Under the pieces are notes generated by a model. The model did no database searches. It was not told the DNA's origin and saw only the letters and a program-made list of their open reading frames with translations. This document shows positions 14,633 through 21,978 of a stretch of 21,978 nt of DNA, piece after piece. The stretch comes from Gemmatimonadota bacterium (lineage in GTDB: Bacteria > Latescibacterota > UBA2968 > UBA8231). The stretch is from contig JAYOYH010000043.1 in assembly GCA_038153405.1 (NCBI GenBank), forward strand, positions 1 to 21,978. The letters are read 5' to 3'. A program made the translations under genes and the position numbers. The first letter of the stretch is position 1, and each line of letters opens with the position of its first letter.

Positions 14633-16087
14633 ATGACAGTTCAACACATTTCACCCGATCGCCTGCAGCCTCTCTTGGACCACTTGGGCCTGCTGCTACC
14701 CGACGAGAAGGAACGCCGCGCCTTTGCCGACTGCTCGCGCACCCCGCTGCCGCCGTCGCTGCGCATCAATCCGCTGATCGCCCAAGCCGAGCAGCTTCAC
14801 CCGACGCTGGCAGAGCGCGGGCATCCCGTTCCTTGGTGTTCAAACGGCTATGCGTTTCCCGCGGCTGAGACGCGCCTGAGCCACACCATCGAATACGCGG
14901 CCGGGGCCTATTATCTGCAGGCCACAGCGCCGATGCTGGCCGTCGAAACCCTCGCGCCGCAGCCGGGCGAACGCGTCCTCGACCTGTGCGCTGCCCCGGG
15001 CGGCAAAACGACTCAGCTGGCCGCCCATATGCGCAACAGCGGCCTGCTCGTCGCCAACGAAATGAGCAAAAAGCGCATCCCCGCACTAGTGGGCAACCTC
15101 GAGCGCTGCGGCGTTGGCAACGCCGTTATTACGCAGGCACAGGGCTCGATGCTGGCACGCCACTTCCACAACTTCTTCGATCGCGTCCTAGTCGACGCCC
15201 CCTGCAGCGGCGACGGTATCGTGCGCAAAGACTTAAGTATGCTGCGCTACTGGTCGCCGGACGACGCACAGCGCCAGGCGCAGACGCAAACCGGCCTGCT
15301 ACGCGCCGCCTTTCACATGCTGCGCCCCGGCGGCACGCTGGTCTATTCGACCTGCTCACTGTCCTTAGAGGAAAACGAACACGTGCTGCTCGCCCTCATT
15401 CATCGCTACGGCGAAGCGGTGGAACTGCTCCCCGTTGCCGGCCGAGCCGGTCCGCCGCTGGCCAGAGCCATTGCCGCTGACCTGCCCCCTGCACTGGGTC
15501 TGGCCGCGCGCGTTTGGCCGCACGTGCACGACAGCGAAGGTGCTTTTGTCGCCCACCTGCAAAAGCGCGCACCCACCCAGTGGCCCCAGGTCGATTCCGA
15601 CGCACACGCATGGCTGCGCGCCGAATCGGACGAAGAGCAGACACTGGACGCCTGCCGCACGCTCGAACGCCTGTGGCACTTTGCCATACCGCGCACCGCC
15701 GACCAAGTCGTGGCCGGTCGCGGACGCCACCTCGTCATGCAGCCGGCCGCCAGCGATAGTATCGAAAAGCATCTGCCCTTTTTCGTGCGCGGGGGCATGC
15801 GCTTTGGCCGGCGCCATCGGACGCACTTCTACCTGACGCAGCAGGCCGTCGCGCTGTGGGGCCATCTGGCCACCGCCCGCTACGTCGATCTAGACTGGTC
15901 GCAGGCGTGCTCCCTTTTTGCCGGCGAGCACGTAGCACTAGACGAACCGATCACCCAGCGCGGCGAAGTCATCTGTCGCTATGGAACCTGGTCGCTGTGC
16001 CGAGCCATGGTCGAAGAGGAAGGAACGCGCCTCAACGGCATGCTGCCGCGATCCTTTTACCGCAGCGAATTGCATCAACTCACATAA
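14633..16087 (+). CDS. rsmF: RsmB/NOP family RNA m5C methyltransferase, RsmF (YebU)-like
   Basis: 484 aa; GAYYLQ, DLCAAPGGKT, VANE, VDAPCSG (motif IV Cys), VYSTCS (motif VI Cys), plus a long C-terminal extension as in RsmF. Confidence 0.85.
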   Translation: MTVQHISPDRLQPLLDHLGLLLPDEKERRAFADCSRTPLPPSLRINPLIAQAEQLHPTLAERGHPVPWCSNGYAFPAAETRLSHTIEYAAGAYYLQATAPMLAVETLAPQPGERVLDLCAAPGGKTTQLAAHMRNSGLLVANEMSKKRIPALVGNLERCGVGNAVITQAQGSMLARHFHNFFDRVLVDAPCSGDGIVRKDLSMLRYWSPDDAQRQAQTQTGLLRAAFHMLRPGGTLVYSTCSLSLEENEHVLLALIHRYGEAVELLPVAGRAGPPLARAIAADLPPALGLAARVWPHVHDSEGAFVAHLQKRAPTQWPQVDSDAHAWLRAESDEEQTLDACRTLERLWHFAIPRTADQVVAGRGRHLVMQPAASDSIEKHLPFFVRGGMRFGRRHRTHFYLTQQAVALWGHLATARYVDLDWSQACSLFAGEHVALDEPITQRGEVICRYGTWSLCRAMVEEEGTRLNGMLPRSFYRSELHQLT

Positions 16088-16432
16088 GGGGAAAATACTT
16101 CCCTAAGCACAGCCGCTTTCCCGCCTGAATTTGTTCTACGGTAGCCCGTTTTTCCCTTCAGAATAGCTCCCATATTCCCCAAGGGAAGCTTTTTCTCCCT
16201 AGCCACACATTTTTTCCCACCCGTCCTCACACCCCCGCTGCGTCCCTTTCCACATCTTGTGCATACCCCGCTATCAGACCCTATATGGGGCGAGTAATCC
16301 CATGAAAAATCACATGGTATTACATAGTTTTTTTGTTTTTATTTTTTTACTTAAGATAAATAAAAATAATTATTTGCATTCTTCGTCATATTTCTCATCA
16401 CCAAGCGGGCACACCCCTTGCGATAGGACGGG

Positions 16433-16535
16433 CAGACACAATGGTCCTCTTGTCTGGGACCCGGAGGCGGTCCTCCCCTCCCCATCATCTGCCGCTCCTC
16501 GCGCAGATGGCCTCCGGGTCCTGTTTATACAGGGA
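16433..16535 (+). ncRNA. Candidate structured leader or sRNA with CU-rich loops
   Basis: CAGACA/TGTCTG stem (16433-16456). Perfect 12-bp stem GGACCCGGAGGC (16457-16468) / GCCTCCGGGTCC (16510-16521) stacked on CATCTGC/GCAGATG (16486-16509) with loop CGCTCCTCGC. Confidence 0.5.
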
Positions 16536-16547
16536 TTGGTAGAAGAT

Positions 16548-16721
16548 ATGAACCGCACGGAAACGTCCTACGCGGATCGCATGCGCCTGCTGCTGCTCTG
16601 CATACTATTGGCCAGCCTGAGCGCGCTCTTGATCGAGTTGGCGGTGCAAAACGCCCCGCTCGTCGAACAGACGAACCCTTCGGCAGACGTGGCCCAGTTG
16701 GGCAGCGCCGCCGACCAATAA
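16548..16721 (+). CDS. Small (57 aa) hydrophobic, probably single-pass membrane protein
   Basis: MNRTETSYADRMRLLLLCILLASLSALLIELAVQNAPLVEQTNPSADVAQLGSAADQ. G/C-ending host-like codons from ATG 16548 onward; AGGGA 12 nt upstream; one hydrophobic run of about 20 aa. Confidence 0.65.
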   Translation: MNRTETSYADRMRLLLLCILLASLSALLIELAVQNAPLVEQTNPSADVAQLGSAADQ

Positions 16722-16729
16722 GACCAAAA

Positions 16730-16864
16730 GAGAAGGCCGGCCTCCCGCTCCTCGGGTAGGTCGGCCCCTTCTCCCCCGCATCGGCCTCCCCCTCCCCGGG
16801 CAGGTCGATGCACCAGCCAAGCGCCGGCCTCCCACTCCTCGGGTAGGTCGGCGCTGCTTTTTTT
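16730..16864 (+). ncRNA. Candidate sRNA of three tandem hairpins with anti-SD (CUCCUC) loops; the last hairpin doubles as terminator
   Basis: 26-nt core CGGCCTCCC-nCTCCyC-GGG-y-AGGTCG at 16738, 16782 and 16825. The outer stems differ but stay complementary. A conserved G-U pair and a T7 tract (16858-16864) indicate the plus strand. Confidence 0.7.
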
Positions 16865-17483
16865 AGTCTTCTGCTGCGCCCTTTGAACCCGTCCAGCGCG
16901 GAAAGAGCGCGTGTTCGATACCCAACAAACTGCAGATGCGCCCGGCGATAAAATCACCCAGATCGTCAAAGGTCTGCGGCCCCTGATAAAAGGCGGGCAT
17001 GGCCGGCAGCACGACAGCCCCCGCCTCCGTTACGGCCGTCATATTGCGCAGGTGAATGAGGTTGAGCGGCGTTTCGCGCACCACCAGGACGAGCCGTCGC
17101 CGCTCCTTGAGGACCACGTCGGCGGCGCGCTCAATTAGATTGTCAGCGTGCCCGTGCGCGATGCCCGACAGCGTCTTGATCGAACAGGGTACAATCACCA
17201 TGCCGTCCGTATCGAACGAACCGCTGGCAATCGCGCTGGACTGATCGGCCACGGCGTATTCGCGCAGCTGGCCGACCATCACTTCTTCGCCATAGAGGCG
17301 CGCGAGAAACGCCCGCAGCGATTCGCTGCCCGGTTGAAAGCCCAACTCTTCGCGCAGCAGGTAGCGACCGTATTTCGACAGCACTAAGTGGACGCTGTGC
17401 CCGCCTATCAACAGCGCGCGCAGCAAGCGGCCCGCATAGATTGCTCCGCTGGCGCCCGTTACAGCGACGACGATTTCTTTCAC
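16863..17483 (-). CDS. ubiX: Flavin prenyltransferase UbiX (MqnM-type context)
   Basis: Start at GTG 17483 (GTGA overlap, GGAGGAGG RBS; 206 aa). VTGASGAIY, IASGS, PCSIKTL, RAADVVLKERR, RETPL, PAFY. Confidence 0.93.
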   Translation of the reverse strand: MKEIVVAVTGASGAIYAGRLLRALLIGGHSVHLVLSKYGRYLLREELGFQPGSESLRAFLARLYGEEVMVGQLREYAVADQSSAIASGSFDTDGMVIVPCSIKTLSGIAHGHADNLIERAADVVLKERRRLVLVVRETPLNLIHLRNMTAVTEAGAVVLPAMPAFYQGPQTFDDLGDFIAGRICSLLGIEHALFPRWTGSKGAAED

Positions 17484-18385
17484 GAGGCCCCCTCCTCCCA
17501 GATCAGAAGCGCACCCCCGTCGCCAAAGGCGAGCAGGTCGATGAGCGTACAAATGAAATACACGACACTGATAATGGCGTTGAGATTGAGAAAGGCCATA
17601 TTGACGCGCGCCAGATCGTCGGGGCTGACCAAGCGGTGTTCCCACACTAGCAGCAGCGCAATGGCCAACACGCCCGCCGCGTAGGCCCACCCCATGCCGA
17701 CATGCCAGCCCAGCGCCACCATAAGCGCAACTGCGACAACGTGCAGCAAGCGCGCCACGCGCAGGGCACCGACCAGGCCAAAACGCGCGGGAATCGAGTG
17801 CAATCCGACGCGCACATCGTGCTCGCGATCTTGACAGGCGTAGATAATATCGAATCCCGCTACCCAGGCCAGCACGGCGGCACACAGCAACACGGGGGGC
17901 AGGGCAAAGGATCCGGTCACGGCGATCCAAGCCCCCAGCGGCGCGCCCCCGAGACTCAGTCCGAGCACTAGGTGCGAAGCCCAGGTAAAGCGCTTGGTGA
18001 GCGAGTAGAAAAACAGTATGCCCAACACGAGCGGCGATAGGTACAAGCACAGCGGGTTGAGCTGCCACGCCGCGGCGACCAGCGCCAAGCTGGACAAGAC
18101 GACAAAGAGACCGACGGCTGACGGGGCAACCTGACCGCTGGGCAGTTCGCGCCCGGCCGTGCGCGGATTGTCGGCATCAATGCGGCGATCTACGAGGCGA
18201 TTAAAGCCCATCGCCGCGCTGCGCGCCCCTACCATGGCGACGACGATCCAGGCAATCTGCCGCGCGCTAATCCCGCTTTGGGCGGCGGCCAGCGCCGCGC
18301 CGCTCAGCGCAAAAGGCAGGGCAAAAATGCTGTGCGAGAACTTGATCATGCGCCCGTAGGTATGGACCGACTGCAGCAAATTCAT
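17480..18385 (-). CDS. mqnP: UbiA-like polyprenyltransferase of the futalosine pathway (MqnP)
   Basis: Start at ATG 18385 (ATGA overlap; 301 aa). IKFSHSIFALPFA, NRLVDRRIDADNPRT, FDIIYACQD Asp-rich motifs; multiple TM helices; mqn gene context. Confidence 0.88.
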   Translation of the reverse strand: MNLLQSVHTYGRMIKFSHSIFALPFALSGAALAAAQSGISARQIAWIVVAMVGARSAAMGFNRLVDRRIDADNPRTAGRELPSGQVAPSAVGLFVVLSSLALVAAAWQLNPLCLYLSPLVLGILFFYSLTKRFTWASHLVLGLSLGGAPLGAWIAVTGSFALPPVLLCAAVLAWVAGFDIIYACQDREHDVRVGLHSIPARFGLVGALRVARLLHVVAVALMVALGWHVGMGWAYAAGVLAIALLLVWEHRLVSPDDLARVNMAFLNLNAIISVVYFICTLIDLLAFGDGGALLIWEEGAS

Positions 18386-19179
18386 AGCGCCATCTGCGGA
18401 AAAAAATCCAGCGACGGCACCGATCCGATCAGTCTGTGCGCATGCGCTTTGGCGTAAAACAGGCGCAGTCCCTCCACTTCGCACTCGCCCATAGCGTAGC
18501 GAATATGCTCGCTGAGGTAGCGCCTGTAGAGCGCCGCATCGCCGCCGTTGGCCGCGGCATGCTGTGCGGCAATCGCATCGACCTGCTCCACTCCCGCGCA
18601 CATGGCCTCCTGCAGCGCGGCGACCTGCTCCCCGTCTAGGGCGCCGCGGTGGCCAACCCAGAAGGCAAAGACAAAGGGCAGCCCGGTGTGAGCAAACCAT
18701 TCCTCTGCCAGATCGAGGCTGGGCACGCCGCAGTCGAGCTGGGCAAAGACGGGATCGCCGATGAGCAAGGCCGCGTCGGCCTCAGCCAGCATGGCCGCCA
18801 GATCGGGCGCAGCCTCCACCCACACCGGCTCAAAGCCGTAGCGCTCGCGCAGTAAAATACGGAGCAGGGCAACCGAAGTGCGCGAACTCGTGTCCAGCGC
18901 TACCCGGCGCACCTGATCCAACGGAGTGCGATGGTAGAGGCGCACAGTGAGCACCGGACCAGTAGCGGCGATGGCCAACCCGGGAACGATCTGATAGGGC
19001 TCGGCGCTGCGCGCATATTCGATGGAGGGAATCAGGCCGACGTCTACGCGCAGGGTCTGCAGATCGGCGGCGCAGCGCGATGGAACGGAATAGGTCAGAT
19101 CAAAGCGCGCGTCGCGTTGCAGCGAATGGACGAGGGGACGGGCGTTGAGAAAGGAAACCACCCCCAGGCGGACGCTCAT
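18382..19179 (-). CDS. mqnA: Chorismate dehydratase MqnA
   Basis: VSFLNARPL, SSRTSVAL, LLIGDP, TGLPFVFAFW; 4-nt overlap with mqnC. Confidence 0.92.
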   Translation of the reverse strand: MSVRLGVVSFLNARPLVHSLQRDARFDLTYSVPSRCAADLQTLRVDVGLIPSIEYARSAEPYQIVPGLAIAATGPVLTVRLYHRTPLDQVRRVALDTSSRTSVALLRILLRERYGFEPVWVEAAPDLAAMLAEADAALLIGDPVFAQLDCGVPSLDLAEEWFAHTGLPFVFAFWVGHRGALDGEQVAALQEAMCAGVEQVDAIAAQHAAANGGDAALYRRYLSEHIRYAMGECEVEGLRLFYAKAHAHRLIGSVPSLDFFPQMAL

Positions 19180-20318
19180 GGCAGTGCGGCCCGGGTCGGC
19201 TCCGAGGCCGTTGCCCCCACGCGGCGATAGCGCGTATCGCGGCGCTGCGGCGCAAAGCCGGCCTCGCCGATCAGGCGCTCCATCACTTCCAGCGTCATCT
19301 GCTCGGCGTGGCTTGTACCGGCCGCGCTAACGACGTTTTCCTCCAGCATGGTGCTGCCGAAATCGTCGACTCCATAGCGCAGGCTAACCTGGGCGATCTT
19401 GGGCCCCTGCGTTACCCACGAGGCCTGAAAGTGATCAAAATTATCGAGGAAGAGGCGCGCAACCGCCACGGTGCGCAAATGGTCGTAGCCGGTGGCTTTC
19501 ACGCCGTTCCAGCGCGCGCTGTCGGCGGCCAGATCGGTGTGGTCGGGCTGAAAGTTCCAGGCGATAAAGGCGGTAAAGCCACCGGTCTCGTCCTGCAGGT
19601 CGCGCAGCAGCTGCAGGTGTTCGAGGCGATGCTCGACCGTTTCTACGTGTCCGTACATCATCGTCGCCGTCGTGCGCATGCCCAAGCCGTGCGCAATGCG
19701 GTGCACGTCGAGCCACTCGCTCGTGCGGTCCTTGCGAAAGCCAATAATATCGCGCACCTCGTCGACCAGTATTTCAGCACCGGCCCCCGGTATGGAGTCC
19801 AGCCCAGCGTCGCGCAGCCGGCGGATCGTCTCCTCGAGCGACAGCTTGGACAGATGGGCGATATAGATGATCTCGGTGGCCGACAGGCAGTGCAGCTGCA
19901 CCTGCGGATAGCGCTGGCGAATGGCCGAGAGCAGTTGCTCGTAATAGTCCAAGCGCAGCTTGGGATTGAGTCCGCCCTGCATGAGAATTTCGCAGGACTT
20001 GGGCTCATCGCCGCCAACGGCAATCAGTTCGTCGATCTTGGCAAAGATCTGCTCGTTGGGCAATACGTAGCCCTCGTCCGAGCCCGGCTTGCGATAAAAG
20101 GCGCAGAAGTCGCACTTGACCCAGCAGACATTGGTGTAGTTGATATTGCGACCGATGTTGTAGGTAACGACCCGTTCGGGATGCCGCTGCGTGCGCACCC
20201 AGTGGGCGAGCATGCCCAACTCGGCCACGTTTGCATGGGCGTAGAGGCGCTGCGCTTCCTGGCGATCGATGCGCTCTCCTGCATAGACCTTTTCGGCGAT
20301 ATCGTCGATCACCCTCAC
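19176..20318 (-). CDS. mqnC: Cyclic dehypoxanthinyl futalosine synthase MqnC (radical SAM)
   Basis: RNINYTNVCWVKCDFCAFY (CxxxCxxC), QASWVTQG, DFGSTMLEENVV. The start may instead be GTG 20312, which has better RBS spacing. Confidence 0.92.
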   Translation of the reverse strand: MRVIDDIAEKVYAGERIDRQEAQRLYAHANVAELGMLAHWVRTQRHPERVVTYNIGRNINYTNVCWVKCDFCAFYRKPGSDEGYVLPNEQIFAKIDELIAVGGDEPKSCEILMQGGLNPKLRLDYYEQLLSAIRQRYPQVQLHCLSATEIIYIAHLSKLSLEETIRRLRDAGLDSIPGAGAEILVDEVRDIIGFRKDRTSEWLDVHRIAHGLGMRTTATMMYGHVETVEHRLEHLQLLRDLQDETGGFTAFIAWNFQPDHTDLAADSARWNGVKATGYDHLRTVAVARLFLDNFDHFQASWVTQGPKIAQVSLRYGVDDFGSTMLEENVVSAAGTSHAEQMTLEVMERLIGEAGFAPQRRDTRYRRVGATASEPTRAALP

Positions 20319-21436
20319 CCTCCCGCAGCCGCTAGGGCCGAGTCATCAACGACGTTGTAGAGCGTATCGCGCTCAACCGGTTTGCGCCCGGCCTCGACAA
20401 TGCGATCGAGAAACGCGCGCTGCGTCAGGCGCTGCTGCGTTTCTTCATAGCTGCGCCGCGTAATCTCGTAGTCCATAACAGTGCCGTCGATATCGTCGGC
20501 TCCGTACCACAGCGCCGTCTGCGAAATCTCGATCGTATTCATGATCCAGAACGTCTTGACGTGCGGAAAATTGTCCAGCATCAGCCGCCCGATGGCGATC
20601 TCTTTTAGGTCGAGACAGCCGGTGGGACCGGGCAGATCGGCCAACTCGGTGCGCTCGGGATGGAAGGACAGCGGAATGTAGGCCAAGAATCCGCCCGTCT
20701 CGTCCTGCACGTCGCGCAGCCGCGTCAGGTGGTAGACTTTTTCCTGCGTATTTTCGATGTGTCCGTAGAGCATCGTCGCATTAGAGGGCAGCCCGCTGCG
20801 ATGAGCCGTCGCGGCGATGTGCAGCCAGTCTTCGGAGTCGGCCTTGGTCCAGAACAGATCGCTCTGCACGCGGTCGCTGAATACTTCGGCGCCGCCGCCG
20901 GGCAGCGACTCGAGACCGGCCGCCTTCATATCGGCAAAGACCTCTTCGAGCGACCGGTTGGCTATGCGCTGAATCTGCGCAATCTCAATCATCGTGAAGG
21001 CCTTTAGGTGCGCCTCGGGACGCGCCGCTTTCATCGCCTTTAGCACGTCGATGTAGTACTGGTACGGCAGTTTGGGGTTGACCCCACCTACCATGTGAAT
21101 TTCGGTAATCGGTATCTCGGCGTATTCGCGCACGCGCTGCGCGACCTGCTCGGGTTCCAGCACGTAGCCGCGCTCGTCTTTGGGCTTGACGTAGAAGGAA
21201 CAGAACTTGCACAGCTTGTTGCAAATATTGGTATAGTTGATGTGCTGGTTGCGCACGTAATAGGTCGTGTCGCCGTTGAGCCGCTCGCGCACGAGGTTGG
21301 CCATATAGCCCAATATAGGCAGGTCGTCGCAGGCGTAGAGTCGCAGCCCATCGTCGCTATTCAAGCGCTGACCGGCGCGCACTTTCTCGCATATATCGGC
21401 GAGTCCGGCGCGTTCTATAATGGCGTCAAAAACCAC
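20315..21436 (-). CDS. mqnE: Aminofutalosine synthase MqnE (radical SAM)
   Basis: HINYTNICNKLCKFCSF, PGGGAEVF, NATMLYGHIE, HVKTFWIM, GADDIDGTV. GTG start with AGGGGG RBS. Confidence 0.92.
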   Translation of the reverse strand: MVFDAIIERAGLADICEKVRAGQRLNSDDGLRLYACDDLPILGYMANLVRERLNGDTTYYVRNQHINYTNICNKLCKFCSFYVKPKDERGYVLEPEQVAQRVREYAEIPITEIHMVGGVNPKLPYQYYIDVLKAMKAARPEAHLKAFTMIEIAQIQRIANRSLEEVFADMKAAGLESLPGGGAEVFSDRVQSDLFWTKADSEDWLHIAATAHRSGLPSNATMLYGHIENTQEKVYHLTRLRDVQDETGGFLAYIPLSFHPERTELADLPGPTGCLDLKEIAIGRLMLDNFPHVKTFWIMNTIEISQTALWYGADDIDGTVMDYEITRRSYEETQQRLTQRAFLDRIVEAGRKPVERDTLYNVVDDSALAAAGG

Positions 21437-21468
21437 GCATTTCCCCCTGTAAAAGGTCGATTGCTAAC

Positions 21469-21497
21469 ATAATACCAACGGTCTCTTCTTTCGTCAA
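21469..21497 (-). promoter_or_regulatory. Internal sigma70-type promoter for mqnE-mqnC-mqnA-mqnP-ubiX
   Basis: Minus strand TTGACG (21497-21492) - 17 nt - TATTAT (21474-21469) with a TGn extended -10. The -35 contains the upstream TGA stop codon. Confidence 0.8.
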
Positions 21498-21978
21498 CTT
21501 ACGGCCTTACGACCGCGATAAATGCTGCAAATCCCCATCGTCAGCGGCGTGGCAGACGACTCGACAAAGCCGGCCTCGTCGAGCAGGCGCACAAACGCAG
21601 CTCCTTGGGGAAAGGCGCCGACCGAGCGCGGTAAATAGGCATAGGCTTGGCGCTGGCCAGAAATCAGACCGCCGACCAGCGGCAGCACGTTGTGAAAGTA
21701 AAATAGGTATAGCTGCTTGAAGAGCGGCACGGCCGGTTCGCAGAAGTCGAGCACGAGAATCTGCCCGCCCGGTCGCAGCACGCGAAAGGCTTCGGCCAGA
21801 CCGCTGGGAATATGGCCAAAGTTGCGCACGCCAAAAGCGCCCATAACGACGTCAAAACTCTCGTCGCGAAACGGCAGGCTCTCGGCATCGCCCCCCAGCA
21901 GCGGGGGGGGGGGGCCCCGCGCGCCCGCCCGGCCCCGGCCCAGACGCCCGCCCGCAAGAACCCCCACCCCCCCCAAAA
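21494..21978 (-). CDS. menG: Demethylmenaquinone methyltransferase MenG/UbiE, 3' part only
   Basis: GDAESLPFRDESFD, AFGVRN, RVLRPGG, YFHNVLPLVGGLISG, AYAYLPRSV. The gene runs off the window and the sequence beyond about 21890 looks unreliable. Confidence 0.88.
   Translation of the reverse strand, partial: LGGVGVLAGGRLGRGRAGARGPPPPLLGGDAESLPFRDESFDVVMGAFGVRNFGHIPSGLAEAFRVLRPGGQILVLDFCEPAVPLFKQLYLFYFHNVLPLVGGLISGQRQAYAYLPRSVGAFPQGAAFVRLLDEAGFVESSATPLTMGICSIYRGRKAVS

Follow-up and report, generated by a model that had tools for sequence, protein, structure and literature searches.

The window analysed here, a stretch of 21,978 nucleotides on contig C43 of a Latescibacterota genome (G000; 4.86 Mb, 93% complete), includes a 775-nt gap between the gene of an RsmF-family methyltransferase and the convergent ubiX gene, and this gap is the site of the studied locus (Table 1). 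Close protein homologs and matching records are labelled Candidatus Latescibacterota or, under an older name, Gemmatimonadetes. On the minus strand, ubiX forms part of an operon (16863-21976) together with a ubiE-like methyltransferase gene, two radical-SAM genes, an mqnA-like gene and ubiA; this operon apparently represents the futalosine menaquinone pathway, all names except that of ubiX having been assigned by eye. A preliminary description of the locus had reported a 57-aa hydrophobic protein outside the DUF1127 family, flanked by stable stems with CU-rich loops, the recurrence of the loop GCTCCTC on both sides of it, and a closing terminator. Both copies of the loop are found exactly where they had been placed (16494-16500 and 16747-16753), the open reading frame (ORF1) encodes a protein with one TM helix, and the unit is predicted to end in an intrinsic terminator, in which the third 3' hairpin is followed by a U7 tract (16858-16864) that overlaps the ubiX stop codon. 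No Rfam family reached its gathering score within the window, matches by E-value only being at chance level, and no paralogs of the RNA or of ORF1 were detected elsewhere in G000.

Table 1. Features of the locus and its neighbours; coordinates are those of the window, except for ORF2, which is found in relatives.
Feature	Coordinates	Strand	Remarks
RsmF/RsmB-family RNA methyltransferase, upstream neighbour	14633..16087	+	Pfam PF01189; synteny kept in many relatives
GGAA-N3-TTTTTC ... TTTTTTCCC motif, candidate activator (UAS) site	16184..16218	.	By eye in most family loci
Tandem NrdR-box-like sites, 31 bp apart	16248..16292 (16248-16261; 16279-16292)	.	11/14 and 9/14 consensus matches
Palindrome ACATGGTATTACAT (consensus ACDTRRTAYYAHRT), candidate operator	16312..16325	.	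At most 2 mismatches in 34/38 loci
AT-rich tract, putative IHF-like bending region	16326..16390	.	AT-rich in most loci
Sigma-54 -24/-12 element GGGCAC-N5-TTGC	16407..16421	+	At most 260 nt 5' of core hairpin in 38/38 loci
5' hairpin P1 (CAGACA/UGUCUG), GGUCCUC loop	16433..16456	+	Varies within family
Conserved sRNA core	16456..16521	+	Outer stem of 13 bp; bulge rich in CU at 16469-16485; inner hairpin at 16486-16509
ORF1, 57-aa single-pass membrane protein, optional module	16548..16721	+	Predicted N-in by charges
3' hairpin 1, CUCCUC loop	16729..16773	+	Folding and repeat match
3' hairpin 2, CUCCCC loop	16778..16811	+	Folding and repeat match
3' hairpin 3, CUCCUC loop, followed by U7 as predicted intrinsic terminator	16820..16864	+	Folding
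UbiX flavin prenyltransferase, convergent downstream neighbour	16863..17483	-	NCBIfam ubiX_pad; synteny in most loci
ORF2	L006:1092-1273		Orthologs in G005, G011, G018, G020, G021, G051, G082, G083, G085, G088

The conserved unit of this locus is the 5' RNA, previously regarded as a leader, rather than the open reading frame that follows it. The two sets of flanking stems differ in how well their stability is supported. The 3' region folds into three hairpins with a z-score of -7.95 (none of 200 shuffles as stable), while the folding energy of the leader barely exceeds that of its shuffles (z -1.77; 12/200 as stable), and the evidence for its structure comes from covariation. Among 29 aligned cores, 92.6% of 555 cells are paired and 11 of the 20 pairs are altered on both sides, a value attained by 0/500 shuffles, with slid controls at 33-52%; since shuffles can be beaten by related sequences that share no structure, it is the slid control that carries more weight. 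The alignment also holds 50 G-U or U-G cells, which fix the plus strand as the transcribed one. The inner hairpin of the core exposes a 10-nt loop, CGCUCCUCGC, whose CUCCUC is invariant.

Within this family of uncultured Latescibacterota, a first DNA search detected the region in 12 genomes out of 24, and a hairpin pattern gave matches in 30 of 76, two of which lie in coding sequence (L037, L038) and were left out of the alignment, as was the match in G004 (C186). A covariance model, for which the 29 cores served as training set, identifies one core copy in 38 of the 76 family genomes, distributed over 16 of 18 genera; the 87 genomes searched from other families, under stricter filters, contained no copy. 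The exact hairpin pattern, searched over all GTDB genomes, occurs at 43 loci, 18 of which score 45-90 bits with the model; the remaining 25 belong to unrelated phyla, do not exceed 35 bits and were taken as chance. The ubiX flank was inspected in 12 model-negative genomes. Four members of genus g14 (G058, G071, G048 and G062; loci L079, L080, L081 and L083) have rsmF abutting ubiX, a clean deletion of the cassette, and are also devoid of flagellin or csrA matches; G017 retains one upstream box and nothing more; G024 and G084 preserve the sigma-54 site together with a divergent RNA with CUCCCC hairpins; and in five genomes from other families the ubiX flanks are unrelated. Outside this set of 12, G089 has a site and RNA like those of G024 and G084, and the loop motif is kept in all three divergent RNAs. 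The RNA family is real, and was found neither in Rfam nor in the openly accessible literature searched, in whose listings no description of an sRNA from the Latescibacterota came up.

The cassette is modular. Neither small open reading frame is present at 21 of the 38 core loci, and minimal loci (G022, G044, G045) consist of promoter, P1, core and U8 alone, within 107-108 nt. ORF1 occurs at 16 of the 38 loci and a second small frame, ORF2, at 11; the number of 3' hairpins varies from 0 to 5, and in genus g13 the core itself is duplicated. ORF1 and the 3' array are add-ons to the RNA core and not obligate parts of it. This modularity bears on the earlier view of leader, frame and hairpins as one functional unit, possibly a CcsR-like small-protein/sRNA system, for which synteny in relatives had been named as a check. 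A single transcription unit that combines anti-SD hairpins with a small protein survives the comparison, as does the CcsR-like logic, but frame and hairpins are not obligately co-conserved, and the element that persists at every core locus, alone at more than half of them, is the 5' core. Two rearrangements of the surroundings were also observed: in several genera, a glycoside-hydrolase-like gene, recognized by eye, is inserted 5' of the promoter, and in G081 (C44, L095) a same-strand gene resembling PAS/histidine kinases lies 3' of the RNA core, replacing the small frames.

The 3' array of G000 is built from three 30-nt repeats (at 16736, 16780 and 16823), which are 77-100% identical to each other. 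Elsewhere in the family, CUCCCC or CUCCUC loops are kept on stems that are unrelated between genera. Over 40 loci, CU motifs amount to 264 in sense orientation as against 20 in antisense, most of them with a predicted unpaired probability above 0.5, and the number of such seeds per locus ranges from 2 to 10, varying through the duplication of hairpins with near-identical loops.

The hydrophobic helix of ORF1 covers residues 15-33 (mean Kyte-Doolittle value 2.64), and one TM helix preceded by a positive N-terminus is found at 16/16 ORF1 loci. The dN/dS ratio is below 1 in 18/18 pairs, and lies between 0.06 and 0.38 over the TM part where dS is unsaturated, a substitution pattern by which ORF1 is judged to be a real protein under purifying selection. 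Its homologs form 50 clusters, the few named ones being hypothetical; no corresponding family was found in Pfam, NCBIfam or the Atlas (the highest Atlas score, 0.89, falls short of the reliable range), and there is no DUF1127 match for ORF1 (44 members) or ORF2 (9 members). A tandem duplication of ORF1, with an early stop in one copy, is seen at L010/L020 (G011, C99). ORF2 defines a conserved, basic 54-aa family with the pattern RWY..QL..LP...LPS..EW and without a Pfam family; it is small, a search of 1.84 billion proteins giving only 11 clusters at E<=1e-10, and its member in G012 looks frameshifted. The predicted structure is a three-helix bundle (pLDDT 82.5) of generic fold, with a best Z of 5.6 and no Foldseek match, and this basic protein is a candidate RNA-binding partner of the RNA. 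ORF2 was not found in G000, and a single-protein scan of genome contigs gave no match.

The absence of a clear -35/-10 pair, remarked upon from the outset, is confirmed for the plus strand of the locus, where no sigma-70 promoter was found (the scan returned a single minus-strand site, at chance level, with 0.8 expected), and is accounted for by a conserved sigma-54 element that had been overlooked. This element, identified by the -24/-12 consensus of sigma-54 promoters, predicts a transcription start at approximately 16433, and in relatives it reads as the consensus TGGCAC-N5-TTGC. The G000 genome encodes RpoN and 13 strong bEBPs; rpoN is present in 75 of 76 family genomes, and its near-universality makes its presence uninformative. 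The GGAA...TTTTCCC pair upstream is also discernible by eye in GC-rich minimal loci. The NrdR-like tandem, scored with the NrdR consensus, averages 19.8 across the 38 loci, against 16.6 +/- 1.2 for shuffles, although in G000 it is only one among 59 strand-counted tandems that score at least 20. The nrd promoter of G000, where nrdR is present, bears a 14/14 plus 10/14 tandem at 32 bp whose right half-site is the same as that of the locus tandem. The locus boxes stand ~150-185 nt 5' of the sigma-54 start, an odd position for NrdR, and they may thus be the site of a bEBP that recognizes a similar sequence. At C52:4026-4176 (L098), nrdR lies directly 5' of a ribonucleotide reductase gene, with two NrdR-like box pairs 32 bp apart in between. 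The palindrome is located at -84/85 from the -24 box (13 loci), at -92 to -96 (18 loci) or at -103/104 (3 loci), classes that differ by steps of about one helical turn. The AT-rich tract may be a bending region for IHF.

Taken together, these features lead us to consider it probable that the locus specifies a trans-acting, multi-seed, Hfq-independent anti-SD sRNA which represses translation and is expressed under sigma-54. The loops are read as anti-SD seeds because of the strong use of AGGAG and GAGGAG in this genome and of the 16S tail: AGGAG precedes 588 of ~3,975 crudely predicted G000 starts (24 in a control window), GAGGAG precedes 177 (11 in that window), and the 16S RNA terminates in ...CACCUCCUUUCU. 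No match to Hfq was detected in the 93% complete G000 genome. According to the proposed mechanism, transcription would begin at ~16433, activated by a bEBP bound upstream with the help of IHF looping, and the unpaired CUCCUC/CUCCCC loops would pair with the AGGAG/GGAG SD sequences of other mRNAs, blocking their translation. In ORF-free species, the core stem would likely double as terminator and release an sRNA of ~110 nt (the 10 nt that follow it include at least 5 U at 10/21 ORF-free and 5/17 ORF-bearing loci), while in the lineage of G000 likely read-through would generate one RNA of ~430 nt, with six anti-SD seeds and the message for a small membrane protein, that may be processed in the manner of CcsR; in some relatives, the added small basic three-helix ORF2 may serve as the partner of the RNA. 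A weak hint that core and ORF1 reside on one RNA comes from two metatranscriptome runs (0.09 share of words), each of which includes a single depth-2 contig, 255-261 nt long and ~96.5% identical to the relative G001, that covers the core and the whole of ORF1. These contigs carry neither strand nor ends and may stem from DNA carry-over, the 3' array and flanking genes that they leave uncovered prove nothing, and both runs derive from one year and habitat, possibly from one campaign.

A search for mRNA targets in G000 and its relatives yielded none that is conserved or covarying. Duplex energies at start regions are, overall, modestly better than in coding controls; for the core loop they are no better at starts (515 vs 543 of 1,500 below -12 kcal/mol). 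The sole perfect 10-nt complement to the core loop among 3,945 G000 start regions belongs to a flagellin gene (C1:205822), a candidate that was rejected, as the match is kept only in G001 and is missing from G002, G004 and G005 despite the same loop. Three further flagellar candidates were also discarded: the 9/10 match in fliE recurs only in G006 among 15 genomes, fliM displays matches of 0-7 nt that are not conserved, and flgE has at least 6 nt in 8/15, no more than expected from a strong SD.

It is this lack of a conserved target that makes a sponge or decoy the main rival explanation, in which the CU loops would titrate a CU/C-rich RNA-binding protein, a factor that binds the 16S anti-SD tail or GGA-rich RNAs, much as CsrB/RsmZ and CrcZ act through motifs of their own. 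Sponges, too, multiply their binding sites by hairpin duplication with near-identical loops, as the seeds do here, and sigma-54-driven sponges such as CrcZ are known. Nevertheless, the commonest SD of G000 is exactly complementary to the loops, no candidate ligand was found, and we regard titration as unlikely. The CsrB/RsmZ-type variant of this explanation encounters additional difficulties: on the plus strand, fixed by G-U pairs, promoter and U-tract, the loops contain CUCC and no GGA, so that CsrA would not be the ligand, and 12 genomes in which no csrA was found still carry the RNA.

The RNA could instead act in cis, as an attenuator or riboswitch-like terminator for the small frames, with the 3' hairpins stabilising the RNA or terminating transcription in both directions, for ubiX as well. 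U-rich runs do follow the core stem and are weaker on average at ORF-bearing than at ORF-free loci (mean 3.5 vs 4.8 U); hairpin 1, read on the minus strand, is terminator-like, and the U7 tract overlaps the ubiX stop codon. However, 21 loci lack a small frame and still keep promoter, core and loop, and the core is duplicated in g13; neither the invariant CUCCUC loops nor the strand bias would be needed by a terminator, and there is little chance that this explanation holds.

A type I toxin-antitoxin-like system had been put forward in the preliminary description. In such a system ORF1 would be a membrane toxin, and its silencing would depend on an antisense RNA and on anti-SD elements within the toxin message. 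The size, single TM helix and purifying selection of ORF1 would suit such a role, and transcription of ubiX could run in antisense into the 3' end. The predicted folds speak against it: at 16 loci, the SD region of ORF1 is on average 48% unpaired and its predicted pairing with CU motifs is 0.00-0.20 (mean 0.04), and in the only two loci where the SD is predicted to be mostly paired (unpaired <0.3), the partner is other sequence. An antisense sigma-70- or sigma-54-like consensus site was found at none of the 16 loci, and ORF1 has no toxin-family match. These SD and promoter results make a type I system unlikely and are the reason why a repressor acting in trans is favoured; in addition, the RNA occurs in single copy at a fixed housekeeping position and is conserved far better than the frame, and we consider the toxin proposal highly improbable. 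Finally, the three near-identical palindromic repeats might recall a REP-like element beside a conserved promoter with incidental structure, an explanation left with almost no credit and largely refuted by the restriction of the 30-nt repeat to these three copies (none elsewhere in the genome, even with 5 mismatches allowed), the covariation of the core, and invariant loops that recur on unrelated stems.

Comparison with described RNAs also places the proposed trans-acting repressor outside known families. Cuckoo RNAs consist of 2-4 adjacent hairpins of 24-50 nt with spacers of at most 10 nt (PMC4615179), a geometry also displayed by the 3' array, with hairpins of 45, 34 and 36 nt and spacers of 4 and 8 nt. 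Cuckoo, CcsR and NfeR1 RNAs are described as having conserved anti-SD loops on variable stems in varying copy number, and as lying in UTRs, 5' or 3', of genes for small proteins (PMC4615179, PMC8034643, PMC10746234); the same sources present NfeR1 of Sinorhizobium as Hfq-independent with three aSD loops (PMC10746234), and CcsR of Rhodobacter as associated with a small-protein frame (PMC8034643). Modular hairpins, variable stems under anti-SD loops, changing copy number and a small-protein frame are thus shared with cuckoo and ar14. Membership in the cuckoo/alpha-r14/CcsR family was nonetheless rejected. The cuckoo motif CCUCCUCCC, in its strict form, is found at 0/38 loci within 700 nt of the predicted start, the loops here being CUCCUC/CUCCCC; ar14 (RF02344), the Rfam match to the 3' array with the lowest E-value (0.5), scores 18.1 bits vs a gathering score of 58.8; the conserved 5' core here has a different shape, its two-tier stem being interrupted by a CU bulge; and the CIN1 cuckoo locus has an adjacent DUF1127 gene, in place of which ORF1, with its TM helix, and the basic, three-helix ORF2 are found. 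Cuckoo and ar14 belong to Alphaproteobacteria and to RpoH/sigma-70 promoters, whereas the present locus belongs to Latescibacterota and sigma-54.

Sigma-54-dependent sRNAs of the Qrr/CrcZ/FlmE kind offer a second comparison, the -24/-12 element being present at 38/38 loci alongside rpoN and bEBPs. FlmE (CJnc230) of Campylobacter jejuni is described as RpoN-dependent, cut from the 3' end of flgE mRNA, pairing with ribosome-binding sites within the flagellar hierarchy and having flgM and cfiR as validated targets (PMC11187230). A sigma-54 promoter and a flagellar association are common to FlmE/FlmR and to the RNA studied here, which differs in that it has more than one seed and a promoter to itself, in the gap separating rsmF from ubiX; none of its flagellar matches proved to be conserved. 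In Firmicutes, FsrA works with small basic Fbp helper proteins. SD-occluding CU loops, dual coding and regulatory transcripts and small basic helpers are likenesses to the C-rich loop sRNAs of that phylum (RNAIII, RsaE, FsrA), from which the present RNA is separated by phylum, promoter class and a lack of sequence or Rfam similarity. Unpaired UCCC/CU-rich loops of RNAIII are indeed reported to occlude SD sequences (PMC4615179). Type I loci such as hok/Sok and aapA/IsoA, where the toxin SD is masked by an anti-SD element within the toxin mRNA itself (PMC8594479), also combine a short hydrophobic protein with flanking folded RNA that bears anti-SD elements; at the locus studied here, SD sequestration is not predicted, no antisense promoter was found at the 16 ORF1 loci, and the frame is dispensable while the RNA stays.

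For the Latescibacterota, these results add a covariation-supported sRNA family with its promoter class, upstream motifs and two small-protein families, and they suggest that anti-SD-loop hairpins coupled to a small protein arose again outside the Alphaproteobacteria, under sigma-54 and without Hfq. The range of cassette states (bare RNA, duplicated core, 0-5 extra hairpins, 0-2 small frames, clean deletion) renders the growth of multi-seed, dual-function sRNAs traceable, and, with reporters in E. coli, the RNA is open to study although its host is uncultured.

The palindrome provides a lead, and only a lead, towards a connection between the RNA and the flagellar programme. In G000 it lies 3' of 10 of 27 sigma-28-like promoters vs 0.4-2.5% of intergenic windows, an enrichment which is optimistic, as the pattern was widened after those sites had been seen; the promoters concerned include those of three flagellin genes and of a fliS-like gene. 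The consensus ACDTRRTAYYAHRT stands just 3' of the sigma-28-like -10 boxes, sometimes repeated at 10-11 bp (G000 sites: C1:205576, C1:180452, C8:103608, C3:81378, C7:52490, C39:33938, C1:69708, C14:13670 and C83:723), and its enrichment over a reversed control is clear in 6/8 genus genomes. It is likely an undescribed operator of the flagellar regulon. At the flagellin promoters of relatives it was found in 3/23 cases, where 0.32 would be expected, two of the three being those of G000 and G001. Core and flagellin are both present in 32 of 76 genomes, the core alone in six, flagellin alone in four, and neither in 34. Three of the flagellin-only genomes have no ubiX in the assembly, and in the fourth, G087, the contig ends inside the locus, with two CUCCCC hairpins visible; the RNA is therefore found in every flagellated genome with an assembled locus, and all 16 ORF1 loci sit in flagellated genomes. 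Against such a link, a single genus, g14, supplies 26 of the 34 double negatives, and several lineages that lack flagella still carry the RNA. A bolder proposal, on which we would not place much weight, is that the logic of CcsR-CcaF1 was invented independently in an uncultured phylum, in the form of an expandable sigma-54 anti-SD cassette with a membrane microprotein (ORF1) and a new family of small basic RNA-binding proteins (ORF2); the cassette would be wired to flagella through an operator shared with sigma-28 flagellin promoters and would throttle translation of strong-SD mRNAs as motility is switched on or off.

Several minor observations were made in the genome of G000, which has nine matches to flagellin domains. 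A flgL-fliW-csrA cluster is located at C1:167573-169530 (L096), and most flagellin leaders (C1:178951-182015, C1:205487, C8:103859) bear ACAAGGAGG over the SD, a CsrA-type site. The palindrome also accompanies a second sigma-54 promoter, on C17, beside which a candidate activator, a bEBP with a patchy distribution (14/76 genomes), is encoded. Genome-wide, ~44 intergenic sigma-54-like sites precede genes, and the N-termini encoded behind them resemble those of dnaK, groES, groEL, lon, pspA and flagellar genes, an arrangement that suggests that heat-shock genes may be under sigma-54 in Latescibacterota.
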